A model generated the notes under the pieces. The model saw only the letters and a program-made list of their open reading frames with translations, ran no database searches and was not told where the DNA came from. DNA of 64,000 nucleotides from Candidatus Cloacimonadales bacterium (lineage in GTDB: Bacteria; Cloacimonadota; Cloacimonadia; Cloacimonadales; JAIOQZ01), in assembly GCA_963665815.1 (NCBI GenBank), contig OY762463.1, positions 640,001 through 704,000 on the forward strand, read 5' to 3'. Made by a program: the position numbers and the translations under genes. Below, piece by piece: positions 49,839 through 59,516 of the stretch (positions are counted from its first letter, which is position 1; the number at the start of each line of letters is the position of its first letter).

Positions 49839-50929
49839 TCAAAGTACGAAATTTAAAGAAATCATTTGGTGATACTTTGGTCCTGAAAGATGTTAATGCA
49901 GAAATCAGTAAAGGTGAGGTCATATCAATTATCGGACCATCAGGAACCGGTAAATCAACATTCCTGCGGTGTCTTAATCTGCTTGAAGTACCTGACTCCG
50001 GAGAGATACAATTCCAGAGCAAAGACCTTCTTGCCGACTCTACTGATATAAGTCTTGTACGTCAAAAAATGGGGATGGTTTTCCAGGCATTTAATCTGTT
50101 TGAACACTTGACGGTAATCCACAATCTTACGATTGCCCCAATCAAGTTACTGGGTATGAGCAAATCCAAAGCACACAAGAAAGCTATCGAAACACTCAAG
50201 AAAGTAGGGCTGACTGAGAAGGCGGACAGTTACCCGGATGAATTGTCCGGAGGCCAGAAACAGCGTGTAGCCATTGCCAGATGCCTGATGATGAATCCGG
50301 AGGTCATATTATTTGATGAACCGACATCAGCTCTTGATCCAACCATGGTCGGAGAGGTATTATCAGTAATAAAAAACCTCGCAAAAACTGGAATGACAAT
50401 GGTGATAGTAACTCACGAAATGGACTTCGCAAGAGATGTTTCAGACAGAGTATTCTATATGGATCAGGGAATTATTTTTGAGAACGGTTCTCCTGAACAG
50501 ATATTTGAATCACCGCTGACAATTGAAGCGGATGTATTTATTAACAGAATTAAGAATTTCCATTACAGCATAAAATCCAGAAACTATGACCTTTATGCTC
50601 TTAATGCAGAAATAGTAACATTTGCAGAGAGACAGTTCCTGAACAAACTATTGATTGAGAGAATCGAACTTGTTACAGAGGAAATCATTCAGATGTATCT
50701 TGATAACAGTGCTACAGTCGATGCTGAACTTGAAATAGCTTATTCAGGTAAAAAGAAGCAGTTGCAAATAATCCTGAACTACAAAGGCAGCAAACACGAT
50801 GTATTTGAGATGTCAGATAATGCTATCTCTCGCAAGTTGTTGGAAAGCTATACAGATAAGATAGAATATGAATATTTAGGTGACAATCGAATTGTACTTT
50901 TCGTAAAACTTGATCACATTGATCATTAA
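49835..50929 (+). CDS. Polar amino acid ABC ATPase with about 120-aa C-terminal extension
   Basis: [27 protein letters not shown]. Confidence 0.93.
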
Positions 50930-51948
50930 GATTTTTTTGTCTGATTTTCAGCCAGAAAATATATCTGCCATAGCTCTTTTACAGATTGATTAAGTAAAGG
51001 AGAAACCACTTTCTGACCAGACTTTCCTATACTTTTTTTCAAGTATTCCAGTTCTTTGAACTTGTCCTTAATTTCCTGTTCAACCGGTTCATTGAATCCT
51101 GCTTCTCGCATCATAAGAACCCCCTTAGACCTTATAGCTAATTCCAGGTAAACTCTTAAATAGCAGTGAAGATCTAAAACAATCTCAGGAGTAAAGCTGG
51201 ATGAGAATCTGGACATATATTGCCCTGTTTTCGAGTCTTTAAACTTTCCGCTCTTCAGGTTGTTAAGCAGCTCAACGTTTGTATCAAAACCTGTTTGAAG
51301 CCATTTCTTAAGTCCCTTTTCACTCTCAGTAAATACAAAACTGATTATTACCGGAAGAACAATGACCTGAGAAATAACTTTGTATAATGGATCAATGCTG
51401 AGTGTATTAAATGCAAAATGGATTGATGCAGCAGCAATATACCCGGGGAAAAATCTACTTACTTGAAAAGTGGTACTTTTACTAATTAGCATTATTGATA
51501 TCATGGAAAAGATTGCCGTTGTACCACCATGCATTATTGCAGTACCAAAACCTCTGACAATCCAGAAATAGATTCCTGAGTCATGTATATAAGTCAGATA
51601 ATAGATATTCTCAAAAATTGCAAAGCCACATCCGACAGAAAATCCGGATATTGCTGCATCGATAGTAAATCCTATCTTATTTCTTCTTATCAGAATGATT
51701 GGCATTATCACCTTTAAAGCTTCCTCAAGAAATGGAGCAATGTATCTTATCAGAACACTGTCTGCAACACCAAAATGATTTAAGAGCGAAAAGTTTGCAA
51801 TCCAGGCAACAATAGCGACAATAAGACCTGAACCGATATAAATCAAAATCCTTCTATAGCTCATCAGCTTGTATGAGTCAAGAAAAGCCAGAAGTGCAGA
51901 GAACAATACTATCGGGGCAATACTTATCAGAATATCTAAAACTAACAT
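50926..51948 (-). CDS. prsW: PrsW family intramembrane metalloprotease
   Basis: [28 protein letters not shown]; about 7 TM helices plus a soluble C-terminal tail. Confidence 0.85.
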
Positions 51949-51954
51949 GGCATC

Positions 51955-54885
51955 CTATAGTATTTTAAGACTGAACATGATTTCTTCTTCTCGGTTGCTG
52001 TCTCTATCCCAACCTGTAGAATAACCAATTGAGAAAGTTGTCTTAATGAATGAGAGAGTCACAACTCTTAAATCTATCTGAGTTCCTGCATTATAATAGT
52101 ATGCCTTATCGTCATTATCAATGTCAGTATGGATAATCGATCCAAAAAGAGACATTCTGAGCCATCTCATGTAAAATGCAGCGTTTCCTATTTCTTCAAA
52201 TCTTAGTGGTGGTAAATTCAGTTCCAACATATTTCTTACGAAAGATTTACCTTTGATTTCATTTATATCAAATCCTGGAAACGAGCTGTATTTCCTGTAC
52301 TGTTTCTCATGTTTCTTTTCTACATAGTTGTTACCAAAACCACCAAAATAGTAATTACTGAAAGAGTCTTTTCTATCGCCAAAAGCATAACCTGCAGCAG
52401 ACCTGAGAAATATTGATGTATGTTTAACAGGAAGTAAATAACCCAGCGAAAAATCTCCGTGAATTTTCGGATGAATATCTGAATTTACTTTTGTTCCCTG
52501 TACATTCACTGAAAATGCAGCTCCCTGCTCATCATCTACATGTCCCAGAGAGTTCTGAAAGAATTTGTAATCCAGTTTTGCTGCTGCAACATACATTTCA
52601 GTAAAATCAGAGCCTATTTTCTGATACTCAGGAAGTTTTTTCAGGTCTCCATAACCATCAAAATCCAGAGAAAGATTCATCATCTCAGGTTTATTGTAAA
52701 TCAGGCTTTGAGTAAAACCTGCACCATAAGAATATCCCTTTCTACTCACTTTTACTGGGCCGAATATATCGTAGAAATCAGCCTTATTGTAAGTTCCTCG
52801 CAAGTTGAACATCCTGTAAGAATATCTACAGCCCAGATGCAGCTTCTCTTCATCTTTTAAATTATCACCAATCGGAGAGTAAGATACGGATAGTTTAATG
52901 CTGTTGAATCCGATATCATCCGAGTAGTTCATAAGATAACCATAAGCCATATAGTCTTTATAGCCTTCAATAATGGGATAAGTACCTTTATTTCGAAAAT
53001 TGCGGATATAACTGTATTTTCCTTCATATGTTTTGAGAGAATCCAGATTAATTTTTGCAGGCGAGCCATCTCCCCACTCTTTTATGTATGGATACTTCTC
53101 ATAAACTTTCTGTCCAAGGAAAGCAATAGCACTGACATTTTCCACATTTTCATTCTTTATAAATCCCGGCTGCCATCCTTTACCACCAACATAGTTATAG
53201 ACAATAAGACTATCATTGCTTATCGGAAGAGGACGAAAGAATCCGGTTTCGCTGTTGGATATGATTGATATATCATTTTCTTCAAAATCGTATCTGTATA
53301 TGTTTGAAACTCCTGAATAATAGGATGTACCAAACAAATATCGACCATCATCTGAGAATACAAAATTTGCCGGAGAGCTGTAGTCAAAGTCATAGATCAG
53401 ATTTTCTACTACCTTGCCTGACTGCAATGCAGCCATATCATAATACACAAGCTTCTGATTTCCATCTATCTGTGTCAGTGCCCCGGTTAGTTTTGTTCCA
53501 TCTGGAGAAATGTCCAGATCATATAAGTCGCTTCCATACTCAAATGCATAAATTGCAGTCCAGTCTTTATATGGAGGATCGATTTTCACAATTGTGGAGA
53601 TACCGTTCTCATGCCTGATACCCCATATTGATTTATCTACCTTATTCAGAGCCAGTTCTCCTGTTCGACTGTCTCGAATCAACAATTCTGTTTTCCCTGT
53701 TGATATATCAACAGTGTTAAGGTCTCTTCTGTAAAAGTTGTCTGTAGTAAATATTATTCTGTTCTCATCTTCAATGTAGACAGGATTGGTTGTAAAATAT
53801 GTGGAGGCACCTTTGATATTACATATCTTTCTTTTCTTTCCGGATTCCAGATCAATTTCCATCAAACCTGGTAATTGACCTGCATACTTCACACCTACAA
53901 ACAGTTTTTTTCTGTCTTTGCTCAGGTAACTACGCGAAACTGATCCCATTGGTTTTGAACCATTCACAGGTCTGAAATCAGTAACCGGATTCTGTCTTAT
54001 TCTTTGCAGATTCATCAGTTGAAACTCTCTTTCAAACTCAATCCATCGATCCCATTCCTCAGAAAGGTTTTTGTTATATACTTTAGTAAACTGCGAAGCG
54101 TAAAAACCCTTTGACTCTTTGTCTCTTTTCACCCATTCAACAAGTTTATCCGGACCATACATATAAGCGAGATATCCGAAAAAACGTGTGCCATACATAT
54201 AAGAGTTAGCTCCAACCTGAAAGTCAATTGCTGTTCCTTCCGCTTCCAGCCCCACCATTCTGTAGAAATGGGCATCATCTTTAATCATTCCACGGAAAAC
54301 CATTTCATCATAGGCACCCATTGCCCTGCCTATACCACCTCCCATCCAGGTTTCCATAGAGACGGCTATTCCTTCATGATACCATCTGGGAGCGTATTTT
54401 CTTGGGTTTGTAAGATATCCGTAGAGAAATGTTATAGGATCATCTGCAGTATGCTGTATTTTGCTTCTGAATAGCTTTCTGAAAAAGTAATCCTGAGGAG
54501 AATACATATCCATAGCCAACACATGAGTAAGTTCATGGTGCATAAGTAAACTCATTCGTTCTGCTGCAGGAGCAACTTCAAAAACATACATATACGGAGA
54601 CATACTGATATAAACAAAATTGTTTGTAACAGCTGTTGCTCCACCATTAGACCAATCAGAGAAATCCTCAATGAATATTGATGTTTTTTCGTATGGTTTA
54701 TACTTCCAGAAATCCTTATAGTAATCCCATGTCCTCAAATAGCATCTTGAAATATGAGGTATGATATAGCTATGAGAATTACTGTAGTATATTAAATTCA
54801 TGTCATCTGTTTTGATATTGTTTAAAGGAAATGAAAATATCAGCACATTAACTGCTAGCAAAATCAATGTCATTTTGAATTTCAT
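51955..54885 (-). CDS. Large exported protein: gluzincin-type peptidase domain, TolB-like propeller and C-terminal outer-membrane beta-barrel
   Basis: Signal peptide; HELTH...PRWYHEGIA; DISPDG and VFSDDG blades; aromatic amphipathic strands in the last ~350 aa. Confidence 0.72.
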   Translation of the reverse strand: MKFKMTLILLAVNVLIFSFPLNNIKTDDMNLIYYSNSHSYIIPHISRCYLRTWDYYKDFWKYKPYEKTSIFIEDFSDWSNGGATAVTNNFVYISMSPYMYVFEVAPAAERMSLLMHHELTHVLAMDMYSPQDYFFRKLFRSKIQHTADDPITFLYGYLTNPRKYAPRWYHEGIAVSMETWMGGGIGRAMGAYDEMVFRGMIKDDAHFYRMVGLEAEGTAIDFQVGANSYMYGTRFFGYLAYMYGPDKLVEWVKRDKESKGFYASQFTKVYNKNLSEEWDRWIEFEREFQLMNLQRIRQNPVTDFRPVNGSKPMGSVSRSYLSKDRKKLFVGVKYAGQLPGLMEIDLESGKKRKICNIKGASTYFTTNPVYIEDENRIIFTTDNFYRRDLNTVDISTGKTELLIRDSRTGELALNKVDKSIWGIRHENGISTIVKIDPPYKDWTAIYAFEYGSDLYDLDISPDGTKLTGALTQIDGNQKLVYYDMAALQSGKVVENLIYDFDYSSPANFVFSDDGRYLFGTSYYSGVSNIYRYDFEENDISIISNSETGFFRPLPISNDSLIVYNYVGGKGWQPGFIKNENVENVSAIAFLGQKVYEKYPYIKEWGDGSPAKINLDSLKTYEGKYSYIRNFRNKGTYPIIEGYKDYMAYGYLMNYSDDIGFNSIKLSVSYSPIGDNLKDEEKLHLGCRYSYRMFNLRGTYNKADFYDIFGPVKVSRKGYSYGAGFTQSLIYNKPEMMNLSLDFDGYGDLKKLPEYQKIGSDFTEMYVAAAKLDYKFFQNSLGHVDDEQGAAFSVNVQGTKVNSDIHPKIHGDFSLGYLLPVKHTSIFLRSAAGYAFGDRKDSFSNYYFGGFGNNYVEKKHEKQYRKYSSFPGFDINEIKGKSFVRNMLELNLPPLRFEEIGNAAFYMRWLRMSLFGSIIHTDIDNDDKAYYYNAGTQIDLRVVTLSFIKTTFSIGYSTGWDRDSNREEEIMFSLKIL

Positions 54886-54943
54886 AGAAATTTTAAACTC
54901 CTGTAACTTATTTTGAGAGAACCTGATTGGAACATATAAATGT

Positions 54944-54969
54944 AAAAAAAAGAGCCGAATAAACGGCTC
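54944..54969 (-). terminator. Intrinsic terminator after the 308-aa gene
   Basis: GAGCCG-TTTATT-CGGCTC plus T8 on the minus strand. Confidence 0.7.
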
Positions 54970-54977
54970 AGAACTTT

Positions 54978-55904
54978 CTACCAGCCACTTAACTTCAGTT
55001 GATTATGTTTCAAATCCTGAAAATCACTCTCATGCAAGTGAATTACAACGTTCTGAAAAGATTGATTAAATGCCAATGCTTTGAAAGCAGTATTATTAAA
55101 ATCAAGACCATAAGCACCTATACTTTTCTGAAAATCTGCTGACCAAAATTTATTGAAATCTGAGGAAAACGTACCGACACTGGATTTCAAACCAGTACTA
55201 AAGAATTTTTCCAGATTCATATTAGTATAAAGTAACTTAGAAAGTTCATCTGAACTTATTGCTTTGTCTGCATCATAGCCAGGAATAATAAAAGCATGAA
55301 TATCACTGTCATTCTGTAGTGCATTACCAATATCCGTATTCTGCATAACAGCCATAAAAAGATTGAATTGATTATCACCTTTATCTGAACTCCATGCAAA
55401 GTTTTTTTGATATTCTAACGCCCATGCACAGAATTTTTGTATATCAATCGAAAAATAGCTTAGAAATGATCCCAGAACTGAATCATTCTCCGAGTTATTT
55501 GTTACATAGTTCTTGTATTGCTCACTTAGCTTATTCACATCCATGTTTTCGAAGTCGACTTCTAAAAACATCTTATTGACACTTCTCATCCAGAGTGCGG
55601 AACCCTTCAACTTATAAATAGCTCTCATTCCCTGTTGAAAGTGATCACTCTGAAGCATTTTTACGAACTTTTCATCTTTCATGGCATTCTGCCACTCTGC
55701 ACTCTGAGTAAGCTTTGTCACTTCAGGGCTATCCAGAGTTAAATCCTTTTCAGACATCTGTTTTCCCCTGAACTTCTCAGCTTTCTGAACACCACCAAGG
55801 GTTCCCTGAGTGTTATTATTATCAGTTAAAGGCCAGTTTTTGGCAACATACATTATCCCTGCAGCTATTACAAAAACGACGACCAAAATAATGATTTTTT
55901 TCAA
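54978..55904 (-). CDS. Hypothetical N-terminally anchored or exported protein with short helical repeats
   Basis: GGAGG RBS with TTG start; hydrophobic N-terminus; recurring SxxFQx-like units. Confidence 0.8.
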   Translation of the reverse strand: MKKIIILVVVFVIAAGIMYVAKNWPLTDNNNTQGTLGGVQKAEKFRGKQMSEKDLTLDSPEVTKLTQSAEWQNAMKDEKFVKMLQSDHFQQGMRAIYKLKGSALWMRSVNKMFLEVDFENMDVNKLSEQYKNYVTNNSENDSVLGSFLSYFSIDIQKFCAWALEYQKNFAWSSDKGDNQFNLFMAVMQNTDIGNALQNDSDIHAFIIPGYDADKAISSDELSKLLYTNMNLEKFFSTGLKSSVGTFSSDFNKFWSADFQKSIGAYGLDFNNTAFKALAFNQSFQNVVIHLHESDFQDLKHNQLKLSGW

Positions 55905-55919
55905 TTTTTCCTCCAGTGA

Positions 55920-56243
55920 TTAAAATTTTTCTATCGAATTTTCCAGTTTATCATCAATATTCAGAATTCTTGAAAATCCTGCTATATCGAATATCTCTTT
56001 TATGAACTCTTTCATACAGCATAATCTGAAATGACCACCATTTTTTTTCATTTTTTTGGCATTCATCAGGATTATCCTTAATCCGGCACTACTGATGTAT
56101 TCCAGCCCAGAAAAATCCATTATAATTTTCATGTTATCTACAGATTTCATCTTCTGACCCAGCTTATCAAATGTATTGGAATCAAGTCTACCGGATAGTT
56201 TTATTATCAAAACATCATTATACAAGACTTCAGTAATATCCAT
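55920..56243 (-). CDS. STAS anti-sigma-factor antagonist (RsbV/SpoIIAA-like)
   Basis: LSGRLD, DFSGLEYISSAGLR (phospho-Ser), IFDIAGF. Confidence 0.93.
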   Translation of the reverse strand: MDITEVLYNDVLIIKLSGRLDSNTFDKLGQKMKSVDNMKIIMDFSGLEYISSAGLRIILMNAKKMKKNGGHFRLCCMKEFIKEIFDIAGFSRILNIDDKLENSIEKF

Positions 56244-56245
56244 TC

Positions 56246-56665
56246 TTACTCCTTTATTATCTTTTTTAAAACTAATATATTATGTTCATTATCTCTTGAG
56301 TATCTTACATCATCCATTTTTTCTTTGACCAGCATAATTCCCAGTCCTCCAATCTCCATCTCATCAATTTCCAAATCAAGATCAGGTGTATCACTTTCAA
56401 GAGGATTAAATGCTTTGCCATCGTCAGTAATAGTGAGTTCCAGTGTATCACCATTGTAATCATAGGAGACATGGATAATGTGTTTTTCAGTATCATCAAA
56501 ACCATAGGAGATAATATTCGTCAGAATCTCATCAAGTGAAAGAGTTAAATCAAAAACTGATTTCACGGGGAAATCCAGTTTCTCTCCGATACTTTCTATC
56601 CATTCAACAACTTTTCCAATTTCCGGAATCTTATTCTCTATTTCGATTTTATCTGTATGTTTCAT
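56246..56665 (-). CDS. Anti-sigma Ser kinase (RsbW/SpoIIAB-like HATPase)
   Basis: DEILTNIISYG, ITDDGKAFNP, IGGLGIMLV. Confidence 0.93.
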   Translation of the reverse strand: MKHTDKIEIENKIPEIGKVVEWIESIGEKLDFPVKSVFDLTLSLDEILTNIISYGFDDTEKHIIHVSYDYNGDTLELTITDDGKAFNPLESDTPDLDLEIDEMEIGGLGIMLVKEKMDDVRYSRDNEHNILVLKKIIKE

Positions 56666-56671
56666 AATATC

Positions 56672-58570
56672 TCACATATTACGTTTGAGGAACAATAATG
56701 TAATATCATCGAACTGCCTGTTCCTCTGAAAATCAGCTAACTGGTCAGTTAACTTATTAATCAATTCTTCCATTGTCAGAGAATGATTCTCCTCAAGATA
56801 GTTAAGAAACCTATCCTCTCCGAACAAGTTATTGTCTGCATCAGTAGCTTCAATTACGCCATCTGTATACAGTATAAGAGATTCATTAACATCAAGTTTT
56901 ATTTCACCATTATGAAATTCATGTTCATCATCAATACCAAGTGCTATATCCTGTTCTGTCTTCACAACTTTGGAAATCCCTGATTCAGATATAATTATCG
57001 GATAATCATGACCGGCATTGGAATATGTCAGTACTCCGGTTGAAACATCATAGAATCCAAGAAACAATGTGGTGAACATGCAGGCGTCATTATCCTGACA
57101 AAGTATGTAATTTGCTTTATTCAGTGCTTCAGCAGGTGTTAAATCAACTGTACAAACCGTTTTCAGCAGGGTTCTGGTTACAGCCATAAACAATCCGGCA
57201 GAAATCCCCTTTCCGGAAACATCTGCCATAATTACAGCAAGAACGTTATCATTCAAAAAAAAGAAATCGTAAAAGTCACCGGCAACCTCTTTTGCTGCAA
57301 TATTCTTTGCATATAAGTCAAATTCTTTTCTGTGAGGGAAAGCAGGGAAAATCTGAGGAAGAAGCGATTCCTGAATCTGACGGGCAATTCTCATTTCACT
57401 TTCTACGGCTTCTTTTGCCTGAGTCACACTGGTGAGATTACTGATGTATTGCTTCAAGTCTGCAACCATCTTAACAAATGAATGCTGAAGAGCCGCAATC
57501 TCATCCTGGCTGTCATTTGTTTCCATCTTGACATCTAATTCACCATAAGCAATTCTTTCGGTTACATCAACCAGTTTTTTCATCGGCACAGAAAAACGTT
57601 TTGCAGAAATAATAATTATAACCAATACAATAATCAATCCTGAAAACATTATGAGAAACTGCTTAATCACGTTTTTTCTGACTTCTGACAATACAATTTC
57701 TTCCGGTATTACAGCGGCAAAGCTCCATCCTGTTGACTGTATAGGTGTATAAACAATCCACTTTTTTTGATCATTATCAAGATCGTTATAACTCTCTATC
57801 CCACTCTCTCCTGCCAGCATACTTCTGCCAAGCTCTCTCAGTTCAGGTCTTCCGTATTGTTCTGCAAGGCTGAATATAGACTCGACCATGATATAATCCT
57901 CTCGCGGATGATATATAAATGTCCCGTTTTTACTGATTATAAATGTATAACCATTCATTATCTTTATATTACTTAGCATTTCAGACATGACTTTCAAAGA
58001 AATATCAGCATAAGAAACTCCAATAACCTTATCTTTTTTAATAATAGGATATGCCCGTAACATCAGCAGTGTTTTGCTAATTCTACCCCAGAATGGATCA
58101 GACCAGTATCCCTTTTTTAATACTGCCGGGATTACAAACCAGTCCTCTTTTAGATAATCGTATTGTGCAGCAACATCAGACATTGCGAATTCGCCGTCTT
58201 TTCTGTGAATAAAATTTGCATACTTCTTATTCTTGAAAGCTTCAGGATAAAATGCTACTCCCGAGCCAACATTATCCGGATCGCTTTCCAGTTCCTTAAC
58301 AACAAAATCGAAAACCAGGTCTTCATTATAGGTGTCGGTTGACTCTACCAGATTTCTTATACTGTTTGAAGTCTGAGACAGTTGCTCGAACTCTCTATCA
58401 AGCTTTTGAGCATTGTGACGAGTAAGCTCTTTTAAATACCTTTTTGTTTGATCAAGAGCATTATTCTTATTAATTATATAATTGTAAATGAGAACAAACA
58501 TATAGATTATTATTAGAGGGATTCCAAGTCTAGCTGTGAGCTTAAGCCATATTGGTCTTTTAATTTTCAT
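56672..58570 (-). CDS. dCache-HAMP-PP2C (SpoIIE/RsbU-like) sensor phosphatase
   Basis: Two TM helices flanking a Cache domain (DWF...WSDPF...FIYHP), HAMP DEIAAL, VAGDFYDF, ADVSGKG, YTDGV, DDIT. Confidence 0.92.
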   Translation of the reverse strand: MKIKRPIWLKLTARLGIPLIIIYMFVLIYNYIINKNNALDQTKRYLKELTRHNAQKLDREFEQLSQTSNSIRNLVESTDTYNEDLVFDFVVKELESDPDNVGSGVAFYPEAFKNKKYANFIHRKDGEFAMSDVAAQYDYLKEDWFVIPAVLKKGYWSDPFWGRISKTLLMLRAYPIIKKDKVIGVSYADISLKVMSEMLSNIKIMNGYTFIISKNGTFIYHPREDYIMVESIFSLAEQYGRPELRELGRSMLAGESGIESYNDLDNDQKKWIVYTPIQSTGWSFAAVIPEEIVLSEVRKNVIKQFLIMFSGLIIVLVIIIISAKRFSVPMKKLVDVTERIAYGELDVKMETNDSQDEIAALQHSFVKMVADLKQYISNLTSVTQAKEAVESEMRIARQIQESLLPQIFPAFPHRKEFDLYAKNIAAKEVAGDFYDFFFLNDNVLAVIMADVSGKGISAGLFMAVTRTLLKTVCTVDLTPAEALNKANYILCQDNDACMFTTLFLGFYDVSTGVLTYSNAGHDYPIIISESGISKVVKTEQDIALGIDDEHEFHNGEIKLDVNESLILYTDGVIEATDADNNLFGEDRFLNYLEENHSLTMEELINKLTDQLADFQRNRQFDDITLLFLKRNM

Positions 58571-59516
58571 TGTCTGCTCCTTCAGGATCATAAATGAAAT
58601 CATTATACTCAATCTTATTTTTAATCATTTTCTGATTAAACAGAGCTTCTCTCACATTTTTATACTTGGATTCGTCCAGTTCACCAAAAGTATCATCTGT
58701 GAAAGCAGATTCAAGTATAGTTTCCAGCATCCACCTCTGCTCAGCATAGTTTGTTTTCAGTTTCCACTTAGAACAATATTCAAGAACCTTATTGATAGTC
58801 TCTTCCTTATTATCTCTGGCATACTCCCAGCCTCTTTTCACTGCTTTTCTGACACTATCTACTTCATTTCTATTTGATTCCATGTATTTAGAGGTAACGT
58901 ATAAGCCATCTTCCGGGAAGTTCATATCTGGATCTTTGGAAAAGAATATTGTGTTCATCTCATCGAAGTTTTTTCCTGCCAGATACAACTTGTAATATTC
59001 ATTGTAGTACATTGCTGCTGTGGCTTCGCAGGCACCGGATAAAAACAGGTCCATATTATAAGAACCTTCAATTCTATCAAATTTCAAATTATGCTTTCGG
59101 ATAAATGCATTGAATGACACATCAAAATCACCACTCCAGAGTCTGATTTTTCTGCCGTTCAAGTTATCAGGTGTCTCAATCCCGCTTTTACTGTCAGAAA
59201 CAATCATCAACGAGGAGTTTTGCAATATCTGCATAATATTTACAACTGATTTGTCATCATTATTTCTAATTGCACCTGTCAGCCAGGCTGTACAATAATC
59301 GATTTCACCGGATTTCAACTCATTAATCAAATTCTGAGAACCATCGGAAAAAATGAACTCAACTTCAAGATTGTTTTCTTCAAAGAATCCCTTTTCTTCT
59401 GCCATGATAAAACCAGCAAACTGGGCTTGAGGGTACCACTGAAATTTCATTTTAATAACATCTGCATTACAGTATACTGATACAAAAAAAATCATTATTA
59501 CAATTGCTTTTCTCAT
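58560..59516 (-). CDS. NMT1/THI5-like substrate-binding protein
   Basis: Signal peptide, QWYPQAQFAGF..AEEKGFF, YYNE, GWEYA. Confidence 0.88.
   Translation of the reverse strand: MRKAIVIMIFFVSVYCNADVIKMKFQWYPQAQFAGFIMAEEKGFFEENNLEVEFIFSDGSQNLINELKSGEIDYCTAWLTGAIRNNDDKSVVNIMQILQNSSLMIVSDSKSGIETPDNLNGRKIRLWSGDFDVSFNAFIRKHNLKFDRIEGSYNMDLFLSGACEATAAMYYNEYYKLYLAGKNFDEMNTIFFSKDPDMNFPEDGLYVTSKYMESNRNEVDSVRKAVKRGWEYARDNKEETINKVLEYCSKWKLKTNYAEQRWMLETILESAFTDDTFGELDESKYKNVREALFNQKMIKNKIEYNDFIYDPEGADNEN

Follow-up and report, generated by a model that had tools for sequence, protein, structure and literature searches.

In Bacillus subtilis, the sigmaW/RsiW/PrsW/RasP pathway operates by regulated intramembrane proteolysis, and in FecA/FecR/FecI signalling an anti-sigma factor is released by proteolysis. 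RsbU/RsbV/RsbW and SpoIIE/SpoIIAA/SpoIIAB are partner-switching systems. Here we describe a cluster of seven co-oriented genes in a 64,000-nucleotide stretch of DNA from a Candidatus Cloacimonadales bacterium (the window; positions 640001-704000 of the single 3.96-Mb contig OY762463.1, assembly GCA_963665815.1) that sets a partner switch beside a membrane-anchored repeat protein of 308 amino acids (aa; p308), a 976-aa outer-membrane-type protein (p976) and a PrsW-family protease. The genes for p308, p976 and PrsW, hereafter the trio, are a real conserved unit that is widespread in phyla of the FCB (Fibrobacteres-Chlorobi-Bacteroidetes) group and in the Acidobacteriota. We give about even chances to the reading that the locus is a sigma-less derivative of a trans-envelope, regulated-proteolysis module of the SigW/RsiW/PrsW kind, to which a switch has been joined.

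The closest characterised system is SigW/RsiW/PrsW/RasP of B. subtilis, in which the role of PrsW is treated in passages of Zhang et al. (2012; PMC3482391). The window resembles this system in encoding a PrsW with the EE..K, E-N, H and H...N residues, in a genome that also encodes M50 proteases; in related loci, the likeness extends to a sigma factor from the extracytoplasmic function (ECF) group, of the RpoE/SigW type, then a single-pass protein of anti-sigma type, and an AAC/GTA-type promoter. It differs in that sigma factor and anti-sigma domain are both absent from the window, where the transmembrane (TM) segment of p308 starts at residue 3 and the STAS gene is only 15 nucleotides (nt) away. 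The diderm host, the extra outer-membrane partner with its HExxH domain, propeller and barrel, the repeat ectodomain and the attached partner switch are further differences, as is a predicted cytoplasmic domain of 135 aa in the window PrsW, which lies outside the Pfam PrsW model and, to our knowledge, is missing from B. subtilis PrsW.

Other described families share parts of the cluster. Within the Omp85/TpsB superfamily, a 'WD40-Omp85' subfamily has been catalogued (Heinz and Lithgow, 2014; PMC4104836), and p976 resembles it in having an Omp85 barrel preceded by a TolB-like propeller in place of POTRA domains. It differs by its HExxH domain; in excerpts of PMC4104836 none is mentioned for the subfamily, and the 'metalloprotease' Omp85 proteins are the PF00149 group. 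The switch genes share with known partner-switching systems a PP2C phosphatase, an HATPase_c_2 kinase and a STAS protein with the conserved serine. They are also reminiscent of SiaABCD of Pseudomonas aeruginosa, which is reported to be sigma-independent, in that no sigma factor lies alongside and the membrane phosphatase is of the HAMP-PP2C type. Unlike SiaABCD, however, the window has no diguanylate cyclase or recognisable output gene, and membership in that system was rejected because SiaA, the best NCBIfam match of the sensor phosphatase, scores 74.5 bits, far below the 700-bit cut-off, and no cyclase is present. The window sensor departs from described switches in its double-Cache domain and dedicated NMT1-type binding protein, and in the envelope proteases encoded downstream. 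Finally, the placement of an outer-membrane barrel gene beside the gene of an inner-membrane-anchored periplasmic protein recalls, by analogy, FecA/FecR/FecI and TamA/TamB. TonB-dependent cell-surface signalling was nevertheless rejected, as Pfam searches found no TonB-dependent transducer, FecR domain, DUF490 or POTRA domain. The protease of the window is a PrsW.

Results

Open reading frame (ORF) calling on the minus strand gives seven co-oriented ORFs at 50926-59516, separated by gaps of -11, 6, 2, 15, 92 and 6 nt in gene order when the PP2C gene is read from the ATG at 58570. The genes, gaps and domains that an earlier note on this DNA had listed were reproduced by ORF calls with Pfam and NCBIfam searches. 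ORFs were taken as longest frames, and hence some start codons are wrong. In gene order, the features are as follows.

58560..59516, minus strand: NMT1/SsuA-type periplasmic solute-binding protein, 318 aa (Pfam NMT1, 3.5e-31)
56672..58570, minus strand: membrane sensor phosphatase, TM-double-Cache-TM-HAMP-PP2C (SpoIIE type), 632 aa from the ATG at 58570
56672..58612, minus strand: longest frame of the PP2C ORF, 646 aa from a TTG at 58612
56246..56665, minus strand: RsbW/SpoIIAB-like serine kinase, 139 aa (HATPase_c_2, 1.7e-22)
55920..56243, minus strand: STAS protein of the anti-sigma-antagonist type, 107 aa (STAS, 3.8e-16)
54978..55904, minus strand: p308, anchored repeat protein, 308 aa, TTG start (N-block profile, 1.9e-32)
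54942..54969, minus strand: terminator- or attenuator-like hairpin and T8 run in the p308-p976 gap (6-bp G+C-rich stem and 6-nt loop at 54969-54952)
51955..54885, minus strand: p976, HExxH domain, propeller and barrel, 976 aa (AlphaFold model, fold searches, member-wise Pfam)
50926..51948, minus strand: PrsW-family membrane protease, 340 aa (PrsW-protease, 5.8e-19)

Conservation of the trio was assessed in a species-level scan, one genome each, that yielded at least 591 confirmed relatives among at least 692 pattern matches. The best 80 loci, from more than 10 phyla, were kept, and their ORFs were searched with the window proteins and with hidden Markov models (HMMs) built from the first matches. 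These loci are mostly contigs of metagenome-assembled genomes (MAGs), and binning errors may account for some of the taxon labels (Alphaproteobacteria, Chondromyces); as relatives are not independent, the counts below measure prevalence and not the number of events. In all 68 loci with at least 1.5 kb of upstream flank, the gene immediately upstream of p976, in the same orientation, encodes the p308-type N-terminal block (N-block); of the 65 loci with at least 1.1 kb on the other side, 58 have a gene for PrsW or a PrsW-like protein immediately downstream. Fifty of these 58 PrsW genes encode a long C-terminal domain, and the other eight, from one Bacteroidota clade, encode a divergent form of 227-235 aa; sigma, STAS and RsbW genes are missing from all eight of the latter loci. 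A provisional statement that some Bacteroidota keep p308 and p976 without PrsW was withdrawn after an HMM search recovered this short PrsW-like gene directly downstream in the eight loci. PrsW lies elsewhere in the locus in five further cases, and two loci (L020 and L080) have none; for L020, a PrsW of this clade is encoded elsewhere in the genome. The trio stands alone in L083, L086, L087 and L088.

A second sample, of 151 Cloacimonadota genomes, gave a congruent picture within the phylum of the window. Orthologues of p976 (E<1e-100) are present in 12 genomes and PrsW in the same 12, adjacent in 12/12, and none of the other 139 has a PrsW except for a 45-aa remnant in G053. The 12 trio-bearing genomes belong to four families and represent far fewer than 12 independent events. 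The order p308-p976-PrsW was found in all seven Cloacimonadota contexts with upstream sequence. The three downstream genes, whose co-occurrence the earlier note had singled out for a check, therefore travel together, and are adjacent across phyla.

Two observations on PrsW neighbourhoods may be added. The stretch in G053 (G053:C76:18258-18392) is 56% identical to the PrsW C-terminus in a genome with no p976 match, and it looks like the relic of a lost trio. In two Neomarinimicrobiota loci (L004:13941-14849 and L005:8741-9649), the gene right after PrsW encodes a cation-diffusion facilitator of the zinc-transporter type, a neighbour of possible interest given the zinc-peptidase motif in p976.

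In other phyla, the usual gene order is (PP2C)-RsbW-STAS-ECF sigma-(anti-sigma)-p308 type-p976-PrsW. The ORFs of ~180 aa that follow STAS proved to be ECF sigma factors in seven of seven cases tested, closest among solved structures to AlgU/SigH, SigW (6.3e-20) and RpoE. Fifty loci extend 5 kb or more upstream; 34 of them encode the cluster sigma, 31 STAS, 26 RsbW and four PP2C. In 14 loci, the p308-type protein encoded directly after the ECF sigma gene carries an N-terminal extension of ~100 aa, which is homologous (E 1e-20 to 7e-5) to the N-terminus of the separate, single-pass proteins of ~250 aa that follow sigma in ~30 loci. Judged by these homologies, a predicted anti-sigma-like domain comes in two forms, as part of the p308-type protein or in a separate protein whose gene immediately precedes it, and the p308 family is the putative membrane and periplasmic half of an anti-sigma arrangement.

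The sigma-bearing loci also share a promoter-like motif, CCAAC(T/C)TT, 15-16 nt, (T/G)GTA. Its strict form has 48 matches in 1.26 Mb of loci, compared with ~4 expected per 1.26 Mb from the 27 matches on both strands of the window genome. With a looser form, CAAC[CT][TA]-N14-17-[GT]GTA, matches coincide with the start of the sigma gene in 24 of the 40 loci that have one, and in 23 of 41 a match falls 40-90 nt ahead of the p308-type gene; the latter position would place the trio in the regulon of the sigma factor in sigma-bearing taxa. The -10 element ends ~3-8 nt before the sigma ATG (L012, L015, L021, L022 and others); this spacing implies a predicted sigma transcript that is leaderless or near-leaderless and autoregulated.

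The window lacks these elements. Sigma70_r2 has no match inside it, in line with the earlier note; the genome has 14, of which the closest lie 3.3 kb ahead of the window's first position and at 777.5 kb. An HMM of the cluster sigma reaches at best 110.8 bits on the window genome vs 220-263 for members, an HMM of the anti-sigma domain has no match in that genome, and the sigma-type promoter motif has no match on either strand of the window. The view in that note that switches and PrsW normally come with a sigma factor needs one amendment: elsewhere, this same cluster normally encodes both an ECF sigma factor and an anti-sigma domain. A FastTree phylogeny of the 80 p976 sequences places the window in a 99%-supported clade of 12, made up of Cloacimonadota families f1, f4 and f13 and two Neomarinimicrobiota, in which all six members with known flanks are sigma-less. 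Over the 55 scored rows of this tree, the sigma state requires at least five changes. The clade of the window (Cloacimonadota and some Marinimicrobia) is thus without the sigma factor, the anti-sigma domain and the promoter, and the window is a rare form of the cluster in this respect; in sigma-less loci, TTGAC-type -35 boxes were noted by eye, without statistics, before the p308-type gene.

p308 matches no Pfam or NCBIfam family. Hydropathy predicts a single TM segment at residues 3-21, with about two residues left on the cytoplasmic side. Conservation is limited to the first ~95 residues, which comprise the TM segment, a juxtamembrane GT[IL]GGV[EQ]KAEK[FY]R block and a QSAEWQN..KDE.F unit; the rest, ~200-800 aa across taxa, consists of short degenerate helical repeats of the DFQ type, which are of low complexity and contain no conserved mature-peptide core. 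Searched with an N-block HMM, the window genome yields p308 (1.9e-32) as its sole such protein. An exhaustive profile search defines a family of 1311 representatives at E<=1e-3 (764 at <=1e-10), and was needed because a word-indexed search with the N-block gave six proteins only. The N-block begins at residue 55 or later in ~40 of the top 150 family representatives, which thus have an N-terminal extension. Between p308 and its counterpart in the congener, identity is 61.8%, divided into 90/100 for the N-block and 99/206 (48%) for the remainder, compared with 78-94% for the six neighbouring genes.

A GGAGG stands 5 nt ahead of the TTG start of p308 at 55904, which follows STAS by 15 nt, and conservation of the TM segment in homologues supports this start. 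The public gene model, in contrast to this start, has 291 aa from Met18, inside the TM segment; the deposited annotation probably lacks the membrane anchor. In some loci (L025:7449-9571, and also L019, L046, L068 and L075), p976 comes after two or three p308-type genes in tandem, and one Delongbacteria MAG has three p308-type copies of ~205 aa.

The p976 family is large: more than 4055 homologues scored among the 8000 candidates passed on, and the best 120 have 916-1015 aa and 45-68% identity. Where named, the taxa are Cloacimonetes, KSB1, Marinimicrobia, Delongbacteria, Krumholzibacteria and Bacteroidota, and all entries are labelled 'hypothetical protein'. Pfam gives only a weak PD40 match on the window protein, the N-terminus of which is signal-like by hydropathy. 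In the AlphaFold model (predicted local distance difference test, pLDDT, 79.2), a signal peptide is followed by a helical HExxH domain (~25-295), a six-blade TolB-like propeller (~296-580) and a predicted 16-strand barrel (~615-976). The propeller has TolB as its top Foldseek match (E 2.5e-9), and VIA-align superposes it on TolB with Z 21.9 and a root-mean-square deviation of 2.8 over 240 residues. The barrel is of the Omp85/BamA type (Z 18.6 over 281 residues against BamA of Deinococcus radiodurans, VIA-align). Member-wise Pfam searches with 20 family members detect Omp85_2 in 10 (best E 1.9e-5) and PD40 in nine.

The HExxH residues H117, E118 and H121 are invariant in 20/20 homologues, as are many other residues in these alignments; several invariant glutamates C-terminal to the motif, E171 and E194 among them, are candidates for a third zinc ligand. 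Together with the TolB and BamA superpositions, this upholds the architecture of putative peptidase (HExxH) domain, propeller and barrel that the earlier note had proposed for the 976-aa protein. The assignment of the peptidase, as MA-clan-like, is the weakest of the domain calls. Peptidase_MA_2 matches three of the 20 members weakly (best E 1.3e-3), and an Atlas lead for the N-terminal domain reads 'Peptidase MA-like' with a score of 0.96. A sequence-profile search of the PDB with this domain returned nothing meaningful, the profile of whole p976 gave weak propeller matches only, and fold searches with p976 were filled by propeller matches. In Cloacimonadota families f2, f6 and f13 (e.g., G047:C62:19192-19632), ORFs of ~750-1050 aa show weak local matches to p976 (E 1e-7 to 6e-4), mostly to residues ~140-290 in the HExxH domain and in a few cases to the propeller. 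Such ORFs may belong to a distantly related paralogous family that encodes large peptidase-like proteins where the trio is missing.

The window PrsW matches the Pfam PrsW-protease model at 5.8e-19 (68.8 bits, cut-off 23.5), and the model ends at residue 202. Residues E75, E76, K79, E113, N114, H140, H177 and N181 are invariant in 28 aligned orthologues, and alignments show the catalytic residues of the window PrsW, p976 and STAS to be intact. The genome also encodes two M50 proteases of the site-2 type. The protein divides into a protease part (1-205) and a conserved, all-helical C-terminal domain of 135 aa (206-340), and its AlphaFold model has a pLDDT of 84.5. With 22 Lys and Arg in residues 207-340, the C-terminal domain is probably cytoplasmic and, on this prediction, is the sole cytoplasmic part of the trio. 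It has no Pfam family or fold match, and an Atlas look-up (<=0.80) was uninformative. A phmmer search of the PDB with PrsW found nothing, and Foldseek returned no match at E<=1e-3; the best structural neighbour, at E 0.1 and over the membrane part, is APH-1 (template-modelling scores 0.43/0.57), a likeness to be expected for the CPBP/PrsW superfamily according to passages of PMC3482391.

The 92-nt gap between p308 and p976 contains a hairpin (54969-54952) and a T8 run. The congener retains the stem and differs by one change in the loop. Among 59 related loci, 51 have a hairpin of -17 kcal/mol or lower in this gap, compared with 11-12 of 59 when the gap sequences were shuffled, and at least five T in the 10 nt that follow it were counted in 32 of 59. 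The p308-to-p976 gaps share no bipartite motif (at most 6/33). The hairpin suggests that more transcript is made for the anchored protein than for p976 and PrsW.

The upstream genes, NMT1-PP2C-RsbW-STAS, are a self-standing module that at times includes a cupin, a second binding protein or a second PP2C. The binding protein has a signal-like hydrophobic stretch (residues 5-23), and its gene is paired with the PP2C gene in eight of nine Cloacimonadota contexts (L082 and L093-L099; not L100) and in L005. In the sensor phosphatase, Pfam detects SpoIIE (3.6e-51), MCP-like PDC (1.5e-16), dCache_1 (3.5e-12) and HAMP (2.2e-9), and hydropathy predicts TM segments that flank the Cache domain at 29-47 and 319-337 of the 646-aa frame. 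The kinase matches RsbW models at 7.5e-15 and 1.3e-13, below their cut-offs, and the STAS protein matches TIGR00377 with 75.6 bits, above the cut-off of 53.45. Residues Y49, S51, S52 and G54 are invariant in 25 cluster-linked STAS proteins. Pfam and Sigma70_r2 searches recognised no output protein in the window, and none of the seven proteins has a GGDEF domain; a motif search upstream of the first switch gene gave G+C-rich noise only. Across the genome, switches are numerous, with five STAS genes above cut-off and nine SpoIIE-type genes in all.

Association of the switch with the trio is real, and not obligatory. Within 6 kb upstream, a STAS gene was found in 32 of 48 loci, vs 2 of 41 in the downstream control, and the window genome has only five STAS genes above cut-off. 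The sensor phosphatase has orthologues (E<=1e-150) in 21 of 151 Cloacimonadota genomes, distributed as 10 of the 12 that bear the trio vs 11 of the 139 others. A Marinimicrobia MAG (L005) has the order NMT1-PP2C-STAS-p308-p976-PrsW, L004 and L046 have switch genes near the trio and no sigma, and in G114 the module adjoins the trio divergently. Among the Cloacimonadota contexts, the switch is co-oriented with and fused to the trio only in the genus of the window (G001). The linkage of switch and trio raised in the earlier note is hence borne out, more loosely than that of the three downstream genes, by the enrichment of STAS upstream; within the window's own phylum, the module mostly lies apart from the trio.

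Some contexts of the module include additional genes. Proteins of 504-546 aa beside NMT1-PP2C (L095:2516-4030, L096:1610-3250, L097:6637-8187) have an N-terminal RsbW-type HATPase_c_2 domain and an extension of ~370 aa, with a weak GNAT match in one; in G114, one such protein is encoded directly upstream of p308 on the same strand. A small Cupin_2 protein follows the sensor phosphatase gene in L093:6327-6743, L095:5543-5869 and L097:6059-6382, and is absent from the window. The flanks of the seven-gene cluster are unrelated to it: a fucosidase and a GH2 beta-galactosidase are encoded 5', on the same strand, and a convergent amino-acid ABC transporter lies 3'.

Discussion

Gene content, conservation and co-occurrence, the promoter and hairpin motifs and the domain folds are the observations on which our interpretation of the locus draws. 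They are consistent with two conserved modules, the switch (module A) and the trio (module B), having been joined in one co-oriented gene string. We infer the protein contacts, cleavage events, topology and direction of signalling in the model that follows.

In the trio, p308 would be an inner-membrane-anchored repeat protein, p976 an outer-membrane protein and PrsW a membrane protease, and in the ancestral system the anchored protein would reach towards p976. In sigma-bearing taxa, the trio would be transcribed from the promoter type of the cluster sigma. PrsW would most likely make the site-1 cut there, at the conserved juxtamembrane block, and an RseP-type (M50) protease would finish the process, so that sigma is released when the link between anchored protein and outer membrane is disturbed and then raises its own transcription and that of the trio. 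With only ~2 cytoplasmic residues in p308 of the window, cleavage by PrsW would do no more than shed or turn over the periplasmic repeat domain, which the HExxH and propeller part of p976 may bind or degrade. The trio of the window would accordingly represent the effector part of an old regulon, active in envelope proteolysis or upkeep, with no output at the level of transcription. Module A is predicted to sense a periplasmic small molecule and to set the phosphorylation of STAS. Since p308 starts 15 nt after STAS, module A would also supply transcription of the trio in this genus, and it may in addition act on the trio via the cytoplasmic C-terminal domain of PrsW.

A specific form of this last step, which we consider decidedly improbable, is that STAS (phosphorylated or not) or RsbW docks on the PrsW C-terminal domain and thereby gates cleavage of the anchored protein. 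The idea draws on the C-terminal domain as the trio's sole cytoplasmic part and on the persistence of switch genes with the trio in several sigma-less arrangements. In addition, the clade of eight loci in which PrsW has no such domain is also without sigma, STAS and RsbW, a single event that lends weak support. If true, this would be a partner switch with regulated envelope proteolysis as its output instead of a sigma factor.

Several observations weigh against a sigma-less derivative with a joined switch. Co-occurrence counts overstate the number of independent events among related genomes. The switch module is found apart from the trio in G055 (by 112 kb), G049 and G031, and without any trio in G053, G040, G139 and G063; because it is usually not beside the trio in this phylum, its adjacency here could be a local rearrangement. 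The hairpin and T run may end the switch transcript and leave p976 and PrsW without an identified promoter. The peptidase fold of p976 rests on the HExxH motif, the weak Pfam matches in 3/20 members and the Atlas lead, with an empty PDB profile search. Lastly, a repeat domain that ranges from ~200 to 800 aa fits badly with a link of fixed length across the periplasm.

The points concerning adjacency bear on a second explanation, namely that the switch and the trio are functionally independent and are neighbours in this genus only, in which case the switch would act on an unlinked target such as one of the 14 sigma-70-family proteins. We regard this as unlikely. The recurrence of the switch beside the trio in varied sigma-less contexts (the window and G001, G114 in divergent orientation, L004, L005 and L046) argues for a functional tie, even though the four-gene module is self-contained, ends with STAS and lies apart from the trio or in trio-less genomes in seven of nine Cloacimonadota contexts, and even though the trio itself can stand alone, as in the four loci named above. 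Chance proximity in a genome so well supplied with STAS and SpoIIE-type genes would, likewise, be easier to accept but for the enrichment of STAS upstream over downstream and the phyletic tie of the PP2C orthologue and the trio. Transcription can be argued either way: the terminator-like hairpin separates p308 from p976, whereas the start of p308 15 nt after STAS leaves no room for a promoter between them.

A further explanation, which we hold to be quite unlikely, is that p308 and p976 together make up a periplasm-spanning machine with a structural or assembly role, like TamB/TamA or TolA/TolB, with PrsW clearing damaged or surplus p308 and sigma control elsewhere being ordinary feedback on expression of the machine. 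Against it speaks that the anchored protein itself carries an anti-sigma-like domain in ~40 of the top 150 representatives and in 14 loci, and would be a signalling component there. The repeat region of p308, moreover, evolves fast in comparison with its neighbours and varies four-fold in length, unlike TamB or TolA, and no motor or lipid-transfer fold was seen in the cluster. A machine would account well for the constancy of the p308-p976 pair, which at 68/68 is the most constant feature of all, for the Omp85 barrel and TolB-like propeller of p976, and for the persistence of the trio over long times without sigma; a sigma promoter before the p308-type gene is as expected for a regulon member, and the hairpin behind p308 points to production of the anchor in excess of the barrel protein. 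The earlier note's own proposal, that PrsW frees the p308 ectodomain and the peptidase-barrel p976 exports or processes it into a secreted or surface signal or peptide, is very unlikely: passages of Zhang et al. (2012; PMC3482391) do propose PrsW-family peptidases as releasing peptidases for exported proteins, excerpts of Heinz and Lithgow (2014; PMC4104836) report that some Omp85 relatives translocate passenger domains, and central p308 is hypervariable between congeners, but the cluster has no toxin, bacteriocin, immunity or receptor gene, the DFQ repeats are low-complexity and coreless, and the same proteins are wired to sigma and anti-sigma in most phyla, which indicates inward signalling and leaves export and peptide signalling without support.

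A full-text literature search found no description of the cluster and no study of the p976 family, in agreement with the earlier statement that no characterised system has this composition; the main text of the ECF reclassification paper (PMC7826278), the part considered here, has no PrsW, STAS or RsbW. The window adds a stable form without sigma, joined directly to a sensor phosphatase module that depends on a binding protein, together with the phyletic association of this module with the trio and the promoter and hairpin motifs.

The p976 family is strongly conserved as well as large, and it spans more than 10 phyla. The trio has the look of an important pathway for monitoring the envelope in FCB-group bacteria and Acidobacteriota. 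It would correspond, in diderm bacteria, to the Bacillus SigW pathway, with a component in the outer membrane added. Long retention of the trio in evolution, with no transcriptional output, would put its main function in the envelope, and sigma control would be superimposed. The sigma-less copies, of which the window is one, isolate the question of what the attached partner switch targets, and make a sigma-independent output directly testable.

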